Origin: Escherichia coli O157:H7
Lineage (GTDB): Bacteria > Pseudomonadota > Gammaproteobacteria > Enterobacterales > Enterobacteriaceae
Assembly: GCF_013167455.1 (NCBI RefSeq)
Contig: NZ_CP038328.1
Strand: one strand, 5' to 3'
Length of the DNA stretch: 64,000 nt
Each line of letters begins with the position of its first letter. Positions within the stretch are counted from its first letter, which is position 1. Below are positions 12,001 to 15,000 of the stretch, piece by piece. A program made the position numbers.

Positions 12001-15000
12001 GAATTGGCCTTACTGGTGTTAGAGGAAACCAGCCTTCCCGAAGGAAGTTCCATACAGCCCACCATTGTTGAGGTGTGCGTGTGCGCCGATACAAAAAAAA
12101 AGACGCTGGCGCGTCGTGTATCGCCTCTAACTCCAGCGGGAGGCCAATCCCGATCCCCGTTTTATAAGGGATAGCCTCAGTATATGCCGCTTTTTTGCTT
12201 AAGTGGTCGGATGTGTTGCGAGAGAAGTTTGTGCGAAAAATACCTGCGTTTTCTTTGAAAGCACATAATAACATCACGTTATTTATGTTTATGCAGTGTG
12301 TCGCAAAGCGACCTGAATCATCACGCAAATTACAACCATAAAAAATACCTGCGCTGTGATATGAGGTACTACAGCGCACCGCTTTACGGGTACAGACAAT
12401 GACAAATGAAGAATTACAGGAAATCGCATTATCCATACTTGAGCGACAGCGCGAAAAAGCACAACGGCAAAGGAGGTTGTTACTTAATCCACTGCCACTC
12501 ACCAGGCCAACACGATTTGCCCTTGAAGATTTTGTCGAGAAATACCCACGGCGGTTAAAAGCCACTAAAAACCGACCGCCTGGCTGATAGCCTTGTCCAC
12601 CAGCTACACTCATGGCATAGTTGGTGATGCGCTTGATTTCCTTTATCTCCATTGGCGACCCTTCCGTGGTCGCCTTTGTTTTGCCTGCCATTCCTGCATC
12701 ATGCGGATATTCGCGCCATACAGGGCCACCAGCGCGATAATTTAATAAAACCTCCTTCTGATAATGCTTAACGTGTTTCATGCGCTCAGCGGCGAAATGG
12801 CTCACGATATGGTGCATGTAATCAGAATGGTTGAGGCTCAGTTGTGCGAACGTATCCGCCGTGTCGATGTACAGGGCGGCAGCGTTGCGGATGTCAGGCA
12901 TGTTCATGCTCTCCCATGCGACGGGCCAGCCAGCGCTGTGAAAGGCGGATTAATTCGGCTTTTCGCTGCTGGTAAGTCATACCCAACTCAATCAGCGTGA
13001 TATTGCTCTGGTCAAGGTAGGAAAGGTGTTCAAGCTGCATAACGCTCATGCTGTCACGCGGTTTTCCTTTGATGCCGTTCGCCTGCGCCCATTGTTTCGC
13101 CGTCATGCCGCCCAGCACGATACGCGCCAGCATATTTGATTCTGTGGTGTAGTGGTGTTGATGAGTCTCTTTTCCCAACTCTGCGCGGTACAACTCCAGC
13201 GCAGCGCACATAGGCTTAAAAAAACTGGCAACGGTGACACGCGCTTTCAGTTCACGGCGCAAAGCTGCGGCACGTTCCGGCGCTGCCTTGTGTAGCTCTT
13301 CTTCACATTTGATGAAGTACTGGCGAATTGCGCGGCCCTGTTCAGTGCGTTCGACCATCGCCAGTTCTTTAGCCATGTTCGTGGAGATCAAATAGTCTTC
13401 ACTGCGGCGATCACCGCCGCGCTTTGTTGTCCAGCCAGAATCAAACTGTTCAATATTTACACTTTGGCTCCCCCGTTTCGGGGAATCAAAGTACAAATTT
13501 TCTACAACCTCAAAATCCACACCTTTTTTAAATCCGTACTCCTCAATACGCCCTTTGATCCAGGTAGTGAAATCACGGCCTACACCGAGCGCTTTATGCA
13601 GTGCGCGTGCGCTGACAATGCCCGTTTCATATCCGCCAATAATGCCAGGTGATACCGGAATAATTGCGGCGAAATACTGTTGGCTCAGTTCTTCGGACTG
13701 AACGAAGCCCTGCCCCTGTACGGGCATATTCGGACGTTTCATTGAAAACTCCTGCTGTCGAATCAGGTTTGGTGCTGACGGGCGCGGAACTGTACGCCCG
13801 TCATGCTGATCACTGCTTGGTGTTGTTGCGGCGCTCGTTCAGCCAGTGGTTGATCTCCACCGCATTAAATACGGTGTTTTTCTCCCCCAGCTTCGTGGGC
13901 TTCGGTAATTTGCCGATACGCACCCAGCGGTCGATAGTTGACACGCTGGTATCAAGCAACTTAGCCAGGTTGCAGCGGCGGATGTAGCCCGTGGTAGGGA
14001 TAGCTTCTTGATGGTTAGCTGTCATGATTCCCTCTTGGGTTAAAAGTTGATGTTTTCTCTATTCTATTGGTTGTTTGTACAGCATTCCATCAAATCTGGA
14101 ATCTATCAAAATATTCACAGATTCTATTGAAATAATATATTTCCAGTAAAAGATTGTGTGAGCGGGAAGAGGTGCTAAGACTTTGAAAGTTTTTGCTTTA
14201 TTGGCGATAGGTCACTGAATCCGTATACATCCTGATACCGTGATATACCCAATGCGTCGTTATGCGCTGTTATGGTTTGCCATCTTTTGCCAGTTTTTAA
14301 CGTGTTAATCCTGTTTATACCGATTTATAACGATTAATAACGGTGAATAAATTTTGCTGGTGGGGGATGTATGGGGATTACAGCCCCGTGAATACAGGGC
14401 GTGTTGGCTGGTTAATCTGCCTGGCTTACTGCCAGTAATGCGGCTGATATTTTTTGCATAAACGTGGATTTGGCTAGCCCTTTTGGCGATATCCCTTTCT
14501 CCTTCATCAGCGCTTCCATGTCGCGGTAAATGGCTGAACGGTTTGGTTCTCCGTCCTGAATGTATGCGGTTGTGCCTGATTTTTTCACGAGGAGTAAAAC
14601 CAGCAACCCCATCATCTTCATGTTTCCCTGTTCTTCGTCGAGTTTCCTGTGCTGCCCCCTTCCGCTGCGGCTTGTTTCTTTGATGTAACGGACCAGATCC
14701 CGCCCGCCAAGATTAAGGGCTTTTTCCTCCCAGTTTTTTGTCCCACGCAAATCATCGATAGTATCTGTTACCGCCTTGATTATTGCCTCTGGCGTGCCTG
14801 CCTCCATGAACGGGAAGGAAGCAAGGAATATATCCCCCGCTCTGTATGGCTCATCCTTGCTTGTTTTTACTCCACTATGCAGCCTGATAGCACGTGCGAT
14901 ATGAGTTCTGGCTGATTCGACCTGTTCGAACTTGTCCTGCGGTACGTCGCCTATCCTCATTGACGGATTAAGATCAGCTAACGCAAGGGCCATTTCGTGG

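Follow-up and report, generated by a model that had tools for sequence, protein, structure and literature searches.

A probable IsrK/C4-type immunity region heading the replication operon of a P4-like satellite prophage in Escherichia coli O157:H7

Organisation of the locus

We analysed a window of 64,000 nt from Escherichia coli O157:H7, which holds a Gram-negative PICI-type island adjoining yicC. All positions given below refer to this window and the features are collected in Table 1. Within the island, an IsrK/C4 RNA device heads an operon that runs from an icd-like gene via three small ORFs to the primase, all on the minus strand. According to the first-pass annotation, the small-gene/replication operon of a P4-type element is headed by the region 12100-12400, and the genes found downstream bear this out. 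The primase homologue in the relative L008 carries D5_N, DUF5906 and Pox_D5.

The replication zone of the island comprises the primase, an SSB and origin repeats. The octamer TGTTCACC is found nine times in the window versus 1.85 expected copies (0/100 shuffles reach nine), and seven of these copies cluster just after the primase gene. This cluster is likely the ori/crr of the island.

Table 1. Features of the locus, in order of decreasing position.
Feature	Position	Strand	Remarks
int	15059-16372		
AlpA-like HTH gene	13810-14025		
AntA/AntB-family (Bro-network) gene	12894-13742	-	PHROG anti-repressor, 3.6e-35; PGAP
343-aa read-through ORF	11876-12907	-	positional analogue of P4 eta; spans AT-rich stretch, promoter, IsrK and C4
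62-aa small gene	12399-12587	+	divergent from the leftward promoter; length and stop same in relatives
Conserved hairpin GCGCUGUG...UACAGCGC	12351-12378	+	within a cassette of roughly 55 nt
Right 13-mer	12341-12353	+	exact match; -169 to -181 from the putative leftward start; overlaps the conserved cassette that precedes the 62-aa gene (5' edge)
Left 13-mer	12236-12248	+	exact match; -64 to -76 from the putative leftward start
Invariant block TTAAGTGGTCGGAT	12200-12213	.	-35 region of the leftward promoter
-10 hexamer TATACT	12179-12184	-	leftward PLE-like promoter; predicted start about 12172
IsrK-type (P4 seqA-type) leader RNA	12096-12172	-	Rfam RF01394, 52.1 bits (gathering 50), model positions 1-77
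C4-type (P4 CI-type) antisense RNA	11982-12069	-	Rfam RF01695, 73.8 bits (gathering 45), full length 1-87
Downstream (seqC / a'b'-like) C4 targets	11936-11979	-	GAUUGGCCUC 11979-11970 and GUCAGAGGAG 11945-11936; direct repeat
icd-like gene	11757-11927	-	first gene of the controlled operon; NCBIfam NF033153, 51.4 bits; PGAP, identical O157:H7 record
Small ORFs 3' of icd	11579-11764, 11366-11575, 11130-11321	-	followed by primase
Primase (P4 alpha-like)	9127-10953	-	main operon cargo; PGAP 'DNA primase family protein'
TGTTCACC, seven copies	8892-9113	.	P4 alpha-binding type-1 iteron; octamer also in P4 crr

The leftward promoter and the AT-rich stretch

A consensus scan of 11700-13000 for sigma-70 promoters called none; the leftward promoter escaped the scanner because no -35 element matches. 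We therefore rely on its placement by alignment with the P4, P1-like and Stx-phage leaders. This alignment shows a -10 hexamer at a constant distance upstream of position 1 of the IsrK model in the window (TATACT), the Stx2a phage (TATATT), the P1-like phage (TATGCT) and L005 (TATACT), while the PLE promoter of P4 shows TATAGT at the equivalent place. The hexamer lies 7-8 nt upstream of IsrK position 1 in five elements, P4 PLE included. In the -35 region, the block TTAAGTGGTCGGAT is invariant in the window, SpLE1, E2348/69, FCI48, L005, L009 and JNEC. Its 117 matches in IMG/VR are all chance occurrences, none being homologous to the region, and the promoter-block pattern gives only one match among species-representative genomes, namely an uninformative SpLE1-type contig from a Collinsella-labelled MAG. 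The leftward promoter may need an activator, which could bind at the conserved blocks further upstream, among them the left 13-mer.

The region 12100-12400 had been described as an AT-rich leader. Low GC content is limited to about 12200-12350 (34-37% GC), whereas 12100-12200 has 54% GC. Furthermore, given the predicted operon start near 12172, the AT-rich DNA at 12173-12398 would lie upstream of the promoter and would not be leader RNA of the immunity transcript, such that 'leader' seems misapplied to this part and both 13-mers would be upstream of the transcript. The same 12173-12398 lies within the 343-aa ORF and carries the 5' flank of the divergent 62-aa gene. Folding of the AT-rich stretch, a check that the first-pass annotation had proposed, is not unusual on either strand (z -0.34 and +0.94), so the stretch as a whole is not a structured RNA. 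An Rfam search of 11700-13000 at E-values up to 1 returned nothing besides C4, IsrK and a sub-threshold c4-a1b1 match.

Immunity RNAs and their pairing sites

A P4 CI-type RNA immunity device had been thought conceivable, and such a device is indeed present: both RNA families score above their Rfam gathering values, although IsrK just barely. The two families are those of P4, i.e. IsrK corresponds to seqA and C4 to CI (Barquist 2013, PMC3632133; Hershko-Shalev 2016, PMC4825925, section 21), and P4's own CI and seqA reach 74.9 and 60.8 bits with the two models. The IsrK leader contains an intrinsic terminator, which was found by an independent terminator scan (stem 12115-12102, T9 run 12101-12093). 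The C4 RNA folds with -40 kcal/mol and shows GCCA after an acceptor-like stem (…CACCGCCAGC). The two interaction loops of this RNA have the sequences CCUCUAACACCAG at 12025-12013 and AGGCCAAUU at 12010-12002. Annotations of an 'Ash family protein' at the locus coincide with the C4 RNA gene. Esr41, which was considered given SpLE1 relatives nearby, is 2 kb away and unrelated.

The C4 loops have two target sites within the IsrK leader, namely 12149-12140 (GAUUGGCCUC) and 12136-12124 (CUGGAGUUAGAGG), and two further sites downstream, where GUCAGAGGAG covers the Shine-Dalgarno sequence of icd. Computed duplexes of the loops reach -19.1 and -21.6 kcal/mol for the IsrK sites and -13.8 kcal/mol for each downstream site. 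For the 13-mers, which had been suggested as the pairing sites of the device, the respective energies are only -3.2 to -4.0 kcal/mol. The same holds for the complete C4 RNA, which yields -10.6 and -12.2 kcal/mol with the 13-mers versus -33 kcal/mol with IsrK. The proposed complementarity between repeats and small RNA is thus not found, and the 13-mers have no role in RNA pairing.

We also compared the loops with their targets across four immunity types (window, Stx2a phage, P1-like phage, L005). The C4 loops and both sets of target sites co-vary among these types. In the 4x4 cross-comparison, cognate C4-target duplexes are generally the strongest, while the window and P1-like types cross-react. 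In L131-L133, the differences are concentrated in both target sites of the IsrK leader, while the AT-rich module is 99% identical.

The 13-bp repeats

Both copies of AAAAATACCTGCG are exact, as reported in the first-pass annotation, and the start-to-start distance is 105 bp rather than about 106 bp. This spacing equals ten helical turns as well as 35 codons. The motif has no dyad symmetry. When the 226-bp region was simulated with a Markov-1 model, 0.065% of trials (6.5e-4) contained a direct repeat of at least 13 bp. The expectation for the 64-kb window is 0.27 such repeats (at least 13 bp, within 300 bp), with one or more in 24% of the simulated windows; the 13-mer repeat is only marginally above chance. 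Searching AAAAATACCTGCG with up to two mismatches adds two matches, at 21811 and 29895 of the window, as expected by chance, and neither this search nor a core-motif scan gave additional copies above chance in the island.

Next, we consider the conservation of the pair. According to the alignments, the left 13-mer keeps 12-13 of its 13 bases in SpLE1-type relatives; the right one is kept neither there (AAAACATTTTTGC) nor in L005/L009. The pair is absent from the SpLE1-type alleles of about 600 genomes as well as from the L005, L009, JNEC and L008 alleles, and the paired-repeat pattern has no match among 100,044 species-representative genomes. The allele with both 13-mers is 99-100% conserved across about 100 genomes, where it is combined with two immunity types, and might thus have a function residing in the pair. 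Near-identical alleles differ by six SNPs, too few to judge constraint, and none of them lies within the 13-mers. In JNEC-KY177, the breakpoint between window-type and L005-type sequence lies at 12242, i.e. within the left 13-mer, and the homology of L008 begins at 12351, i.e. within the right one. The 13-mers are most likely either chance or a recombination-junction identity of two modules, namely the promoter block with the AT-rich segment on one side and the small-ORF cassette on the other. The pair appears to be an allele-specific coincidence upstream of a known immunity switch.

The 62-aa gene and its hairpin cassette

The 62-aa gene shows pN/pS values of 0.08-0.41 compared to 0.17-0.71 in the antisense frame. 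A protein search found nine relatives of its product only, all of them unnamed proteins from E. coli, and there is no family match in PHROGs, NCBIfam or Pfam. The gene is preceded by the hairpin cassette of about 55 nt, which alignments also place before many other small plus-strand ORFs in related islands. In the hairpin, 93% of cells are paired and 4/8 pairs are changed on both sides, while slid controls reach 17-63%; its G.U pairs fit the plus strand. The activator site of P2/P4 late promoters has the consensus TGT-N12-ACA. We rejected such a site as an explanation for the hairpin, which has a spacing of N13 and is unsuitably placed with respect to the ATG.

A stretch of 98 bp is represented by only 29 bp in L005-type islands, which nevertheless retain both the promoter block and the cassette. 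One and the same AT-rich module is found joined to two different immunity types. Length differences among alleles in this zone are 69, 198 and 267 nt, i.e. all multiples of three.

The 343-aa ORF

The long ORF drawn across the region had been judged spurious, which its sequence contradicts. Its frame is open from 12949 to 11876, which was observed in 0/20000 simulations. In relatives, the open stretch of the corresponding frame measures 619, at least 602, 545 and 396 codons, and in P4 217 codons; the overall range in relatives is 357-619 codons, and the frame stays open even through non-homologous inserts. At its possible start codons (ATG at 12907 and 12901), the ORF overlaps the stop of AntA (12896-12894), which suggests translational coupling to the AntA gene immediately upstream. 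Taken together with its eta-like position, the ORF is probably not spurious. For P4 eta, translation counteracts termination, and the 343-aa ORF is placed like P4 eta (PMC10111431).

On the level of the protein, no amino-acid constraint was shown for the ORF, with pN/pS = 1.19 over 12590-12893. Its product has no match in Pfam, PHROGs or NCBIfam and no similarity to P4 Eta (BLASTP best E 0.065). The Phage_ASH match belongs to a different frame (ORF 12065-11760). The end of the ORF at 11876 is out of frame with icd (11927-11757), i.e. the same-frame nesting known from kil is not seen here. It is present in relatives, since RM10042 has a single CDS of 550 aa that ends in Icd. Relative to JNEC-KY177, the run at 12093-12101 (T9 versus T7) causes a frame shift.

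Comparison with known systems

The region shares with the P4 immunity region the order and strand of its elements, i.e. promoter, seqA/IsrK hairpins with terminator, CI/C4, downstream target, a small toxic-type gene and finally the primase. Also in common are the similar scores of both Rfam models, the equal distance of the -10 hexamer and the alpha iteron octamer, as well as a long ORF across seqA and CI whose start, upstream of the promoter, overlaps with the stop codon of the gene before it (PMC10111431). For the last of these, P4 shows an ATGA coupling of vis/eta at 8767. In contrast to P4, the first gene is icd-like instead of kil, and the long ORF has 343 aa, is coupled to AntA instead of vis/alpA, lacks similarity to Eta and is out of frame with icd. 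In addition, the window has the divergent 62-aa gene and hairpin cassette antisense within the long ORF, and no sid/delta/psu genes adjoin the locus. Since the loop sequences differ, the two represent different immunity types.

The P1/P7 immI operon (c4, icd, ant) likewise has a C4-family RNA followed by icd. In the P1-like phage, one C4 loop also pairs with the icd ribosome-binding site (GUCAGAGGAG in the window, GUCUAAGGAGG in the phage), and the c4-icd regions show 79% DNA identity. The window differs in that it lacks an upstream C1 operator, where the P1-like phage has ATTGCTCTAATAAATT. Furthermore, its antirepressor gene is upstream instead of downstream, and its operon runs on into replication genes. 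The isrK-orf45(STnc1160)-anrP region of Salmonella Gifsy-1 also has an IsrK-family leader with a leaky terminator, followed by a processed complementary C4-like RNA (PMC4825925, section 21); for the window, processing is presumed. In Gifsy-1, however, the short form of IsrK acts as a translational activator of the long mRNA, and an antirepressor is encoded as cargo, while here the cargo is icd plus replication genes. Homologous IsrK-C4 blocks are found in Stx2a phages.

Finally, the island follows the Gram-negative PICI layout (PMC10111431), with an integration zone of int and the AlpA-like HTH gene, a Bro zone of AntA with IsrK/C4 in the long ORF, and then the replication zone. Beyond that layout, it has ProQ/FinO-like and three PerC-family genes as well as IS66. 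Neither the 13-mers nor small antisense ORF cassettes are mentioned in PMC10111431.

Discussion

We consider it quite probable that a P4-like satellite prophage has the control region of its replication operon at 12100-12400, at the head of the operon, that this region works by the known IsrK/C4 immunity and that the 13-mers play no part in pairing. The family matches, the complementarities with their covariation, the conserved promoter hexamer, the non-conservation of the repeat pair and the conserved openness of the ORF are direct observations. The steps that follow from them are modelled on the related systems. Transcription would start near 12172 from the PLE-like promoter, and its first 77 nt would form the IsrK/seqA-type leader with the intrinsic terminator at its end. 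The C4/CI-type RNA would be part of read-through transcripts and be processed from them into a stable antisense RNA, which in the C4 family involves RNase P at the 5' end. Its two exposed segments could then bind the two sites in the IsrK leader as well as the two sites before icd, one of which lies over the icd ribosome-binding site. Such pairing would lead to premature termination or a translational block and prevent expression of icd, the small genes and the primase, i.e. confer immunity. After induction, transcription from an upstream promoter along with ribosomes on the eta-like ORF might override termination, as in P4.

A system of this kind is already known, namely the textbook antisense-RNA immunity switch of P4/P1 type; such switches are detected by curated Rfam models and have been described for P4-like satellites and Gram-negative PICIs. 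The locus adds one heteroimmune type, in an O157:H7 island with PerC-family regulator genes. The main value of the analysis is one of correction. The 13-bp repeats contribute nothing to the mechanism. In addition, long ORFs drawn across such leaders are not to be dismissed, for their open frames are conserved, as for P4 eta.

What the 13-mers are instead can be judged from the same data. That they are repeated leader sequences of the minus-strand transcript, paired by a small immunity RNA to cause premature termination, is very improbable. The locus uses precisely such a mechanism, and transcription from upstream (AntA operon) would place the 13-mers in a long eta-like mRNA. Yet both the conserved -10 and the predicted start of the immunity transcript lie downstream of the 13-mers, and the duplexes of the latter with the C4 loops are far weaker than the -14 to -22 kcal/mol of the true sites, as are those with the whole C4 compared to IsrK. 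Moreover, the AT-rich part has neither an Rfam match nor an unusual fold, and the pair is not conserved where C4 and IsrK are. Hardly credible is an origin of replication in the AT-rich stretch with the 13-mers as iterons for the primase/helicase. A divergent intergenic region that is AT-rich and contains direct repeats is reminiscent of one, and the P4 ori likewise lies between leftward and rightward operons, but there are just two 13-mer copies and TGTTCACC has none in 12100-12900. We rejected an iteron-type origin here, the iterons being clustered elsewhere.

Sites for a DNA-binding regulator (AlpA-like, the 62-aa protein or a host factor) are a more serious candidate, albeit an unlikely one. 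Bound on the same helix face ten turns apart, such a protein could control the PLE-like promoter and/or the 62-aa gene, possibly by looping. The exact identity with its low local chance, the helical spacing, the near-identity of the allele across about 100 genomes and the left copy retained by SpLE1-type relatives within a promoter module without -35 would all fit. This is opposed by the other alleles, none of which keeps two copies of any shared motif at both positions, and by the L005-type islands with their shortened segment between a retained promoter block and cassette. The motif is also not symmetric and has no further full or core copy in the island, and the conserved cassette edge accounts for the right copy. 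A footprint of DNA rearrangement is possible, if rather doubtful. Here, either a 105-bp insertion would be flanked by its duplicated target, or short linker homologies would have served the exchange of modules (promoter block, AT-rich segment, small-ORF cassettes) while keeping the long antisense ORF in frame. Both breakpoints fall within the copies, the repeat unit corresponds to whole codons, as do all allele length differences, and the AT-rich module is joined to two immunity types. However, only these two breakpoints are observed, and an ORF that is open in all alleles makes multiples of three automatic. SpLE1-type alleles possess the AT-rich segment but not the repeated right end, and neither terminal inverted repeats nor other marks of a mobile element are seen in the segment.

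Coming back to the preferred reading of an IsrK/C4 control region, we tentatively extend it to the zone between AntA and the immunity promoter, which might be a frame-preserving cassette site, an idea we hold with rather low confidence. Small genes on the opposite strand, each following a hairpin cassette, would be swapped there within the eta-like ORF. Selection would act only on the openness of this ORF and not on its protein, since RNA immunity would be overridden only if ribosomes pass through it. In this case, the 13-mers would represent the junction homologies at which the AT-rich module of the window became joined to its single cassette.

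RNA immunity device

Scanning the window with Rfam at gathering thresholds, we obtained two relevant matches, both on the minus strand, namely C4 and IsrK. P4 matches both models too, i.e., with CI (8420-8507, 74.9 bits) and seqA (8615-8692, 60.8 bits). In the literature, IsrK is described as a structural homologue of seqA and C4 (STnc1160) as a homologue of CI (PMC3632133; PMC4825925). Coordinates of all features, including the pairing sites, are collected in the table. The computed C4 duplexes reach -19.1 and -21.6 kcal/mol at the IsrK sites and -13.8 kcal/mol at each downstream site. 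The Shine-Dalgarno sequence of icd lies inside GUCAGAGGAG, nine bases ahead of the ATG at 11927.

Features of the immunity locus and its island (L002 is Sakai SpLE1; other L numbers are related islands or loci)
Feature	Coordinates	Strand	Remark
C4 antisense RNA (RF01695)	12069-11982	-	73.8 bits (gathering 45)
IsrK (RF01394)	12172-12096	-	52.1 bits (gathering 50)
Intrinsic terminator closing the IsrK match	stem 12115-12102, then nine T	-	terminator scan
C4 segment CCUCUAACACCAG	12025-12013	-	pairs with CUGGAGUUAGAGG in the IsrK leader (12136-12124) and GUCAGAGGAG before icd (11945-11936)
C4 segment AGGCCAAUU	12010-12002	-	pairs with GAUUGGCCUC in the IsrK leader (12149-12140) and GAUUGGCCUC before icd (11979-11970)
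13-mer AAAAATACCTGCG, two exact copies	12236-12248; 12341-12353	+	
Hairpin before 62-aa ORF	12351-12378	+	93% paired across nine cassettes
62-aa ORF	12399-12587	+	length and stop codon kept in relatives
~55-nt cassette copies	window 12336-12401 (+); L002 2644-2709, 2929-2994; L005 3938-4003; L006 2102-2167; L008 3938-4003; L009 1842-1907, 2355-2420		
Long open frame	window 11876-12907 (-); L005 3331-5190; L008 3361-4551; L009 1211-3019; L129 823-2460	-	from AntA end through promoter, IsrK and C4
Integrase	15059-16372	-	annotated record; hypothetical gene also present
AlpA-like HTH gene	13810-14025	-	annotated record
AntA/AntB-family gene	12894-13742	-	annotated record
icd-like gene, three small ORFs after it	11757-11927 (icd-like)	-	annotated record
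Primase	9127-10953	-	annotated record
SSB, ProQ/FinO-like gene, three PerC-family genes, IS66		-	annotated record

Next, we aligned four heteroimmune relatives (window, Stx2a phage, P1-like phage, island L005). The stems are conserved, and both loops change together with both target sets. When every type was compared with every other (4x4), cognate duplexes generally came out strongest; cross-reaction occurs between the window and P1-like types, as their common GGCCAA site would predict. In three further E. coli islands, differences from the window concentrate in the two IsrK target sites (12127-12148). The device follows P4 (seqA/CI/seqC) and P1 (c4/icd) logic, and the general guess of the first-pass annotation, i.e., P4-type RNA immunity at this locus, was therefore right. 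The system is already known: it belongs to a well-described family (P4 seqA/CI, P1 c4/icd, Gifsy-1 IsrK), and curated models detect it.

Those three islands, L131-L133 (corresponding to window 12092-12420), carry an AT-rich module 99% identical to that of the window, with both 13-mers, next to IsrK target loops of another specificity; the immunity type is thus exchanged independently of the module upstream. A PGAP pseudo-CDS ('ash family protein') and a Pfam Phage_ASH match (residues 1-51 of ORF 12065-11760) lie exactly on the C4 gene (11982-12065, minus strand). At this locus at least, the protein-family annotation and a structured RNA gene share their position. In the sister island L008, which occupies the same yicC site, icd/C4/IsrK give way to a ribbon-helix-helix-like ORF of 59 aa together with three inverted repeats of the GTGTTGAACAC type (3394-3952). 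This looks like a protein-operator control module instead of an RNA one.

The 13-bp repeats

Both 13-mer copies are exact as first annotated, with a start-to-start spacing of 105 bp rather than ~106 bp. The low GC content ascribed to 12100-12400 holds for 12200-12350 (34-37%) but not for 12100-12200 (54%), such that the stretch is narrower than claimed. Simulating the 226-bp region with a Markov-1 model gave a direct repeat of at least 13 bp in 0.065% of trials. Counting repeats within 300 bp, 0.27 are expected per 64-kb window and 24% of simulated windows hold at least one; a whole-window scan would therefore often meet one by chance. Allowing up to two mismatches adds only two sites elsewhere in the window, neither of them within the island, which equals chance expectation, and a core scan found no other copy of the motif core in the island. 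The pair is real, but its significance is marginal and it is not conserved.

A -10 hexamer precedes IsrK model position 1 by 7-8 nt in all four aligned elements (TATACT at 12184-12179 in the window; TATATT, TATGCT and TATACT in the others), and TATAGT of the P4 PLE occupies the same place. This conserved position puts the predicted transcription start near 12172 and thus the 13-mers upstream of it, at -64/-76 and -169/-181. Homology to the Stx-phage and P1-like leaders ends at ~12170. The 13-mers show no real pairing with the C4 loops (duplexes of only -3.2 to -4.0 kcal/mol). On both strands, folding of the AT-rich stretch is no more stable than that of shuffled sequence, and the stretch is without Rfam match even at E = 1. 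The suggested fold and complementarity check, run against C4, came out negative for the repeats: the idea of RNA immunity is right as regards the locus and wrong as regards the 13-mers.

We also compared the region among relatives. Positions 12191-12591 are ~76% conserved in ~600 E. coli genomes, e.g., Sakai SpLE1 and E2348/69. Genomes with such SpLE1-type alleles show no IsrK/C4 left of the AT-rich module; the left 13-mer is retained there as AAAAATACCTGTG or ...GCG, with AAAACATTTTTGC at the right position. The closer islands with IsrK/C4 (L005, L006, L007, L009) carry 29 bp or 296 bp in place of the window's 98 bp and lack either exact copy. Two recombination breakpoints fall inside 13-mer copies: strain JNEC-KY177 matches the window at ~99% identity as far as 12242 and is of L005/L009 type beyond, and L008 shows 94.8% identity from 12351 rightwards with unrelated sequence to the left. 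The right 13-mer overlaps the 5' edge of the ~55-nt cassette that precedes many small plus-strand ORFs in these islands. The allele with both copies is found in ~100 genomes (99-100% identity), combined with two or more immunity types, and none of 100,044 species-representative genomes contains the paired pattern.

Judged from these alignments, the two copies belong to different conserved modules, with an exact identity specific to one allele, which is why we read the pair as probable chance or junction identity. A minority alternative would take the 13-mers as regulator-binding sites, which is conceivable because the promoter is without -35 element and the left copy lies within a conserved upstream block. 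Origin iterons are ruled out: the P4 alpha iteron TGTTCACC is absent from the 13-mer region. In Sakai SpLE1, the sRNA Esr41 (Rfam RF02676, 108.6 bits; L002 4818-4891) lies ~2 kb from the AT-rich module copy, unrelated to the 13-mer finding.

The 343-aa ORF

The product of the 343-aa ORF has no Pfam match and no significant similarity to P4 Eta, and no amino-acid constraint is visible where the frame is testable alone (pN/pS 1.19 over 12590-12893), all of which would fit a spurious ORF. Yet the frame is maintained. It is open for 357 codons, which 0/20000 simulations gave, and its first ATGs (12907, 12901) overlap the AntA stop (12896-12894). Its minus-strand counterparts span 619 open codons in L005, at least 602 in L009, 545 in JNEC-KY177 and 396 in L008, where the frame runs through an unrelated module. 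Allele length differences (69, 198, 267 nt) are multiples of three. The ORF, dismissed as spurious in the first-pass annotation, is probably meaningful. In every related island the frame stays open (357-619 codons), also where it crosses unrelated inserts or runs opposite small plus-strand genes.

P4 has a similar frame, eta, open for 217 codons: it begins upstream of PLE, at an ATGA shared with vis, and extends across seqA and CI. PLE is reported to lie inside eta, with the late promoter upstream as the only source of full-length Eta, whose translation prevents immunity-specific termination (PMC10111431, citing Forti et al. 1999). By this analogy, we conclude that the 343-aa ORF is the positional analogue of eta; it looks selected for openness, not protein sequence. 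In strain RM10042, PGAP annotates a single 550-aa CDS over the whole region with the Icd domain at its end, which corresponds to eta/kil nesting. The ORF of the window, in contrast, stops 51 nt into icd, in another frame. The T run of the IsrK terminator (12093-12101), T9 in the window vs. T7 in JNEC-KY177, accounts for a frame difference with that strain; shifted by these two bases, the long ORF would share the frame of ASH/icd. The O157:H7 copy may be a frameshifted eta/kil-type arrangement, and in a cryptic island such as this the ORF may have decayed slightly.

Divergent 62-aa gene and hairpin cassette

The 62-aa ORF shows pN/pS values of 0.08-0.41, always below those of the antisense frame (0.17-0.71). 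Its product has no family match, and relatives are found only in E. coli. The hairpin before it covaries (GCGCYGU/ACRGCGC, loop ...GAGGUACU), with both sides changed in 4/8 pairs and G.U pairs that fit the plus strand. The conserved cassette heads many different small plus-strand ORFs in tandem in these islands.

Island setting

Over the 1.25 kb around the 13-mer region, E. coli O157:H7 chromosomes match the window at 100% identity. According to the annotated record, the island adjoins yicC with its listed genes on the minus strand, and its gene order follows the integration / Bro / replication layout reported from P4-like satellites and Gram-negative PICIs (PMC10111431). Directly downstream of the primase gene, TGTTCACC (P4 alpha type-1 iteron) occurs seven times on both strands (8892-9113), with only 1.85 copies expected over the whole window; this cluster is likely the island's ori/crr.

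Two further intergenic repeats lie near the PerC-family genes (5372-5569 and 6824-7006), i.e., three copies of TTTGCGCACTT 83-102 bp apart and a 62-65-bp unit (CCGCTGTACAGAGGGCTCCAGTTGCCCAAAGAGG...) three times in tandem. A JUMPstart element with the ops motif GGCGGTAGCGTG (Rfam RF01707, 55.2 bits; 25836-25874, plus strand) is located in the flanking core chromosome and may be the waa operon leader. Dense direct repeats with periods of 234-297 bp at 55950-57300 suggest a gene with tandem repeats.
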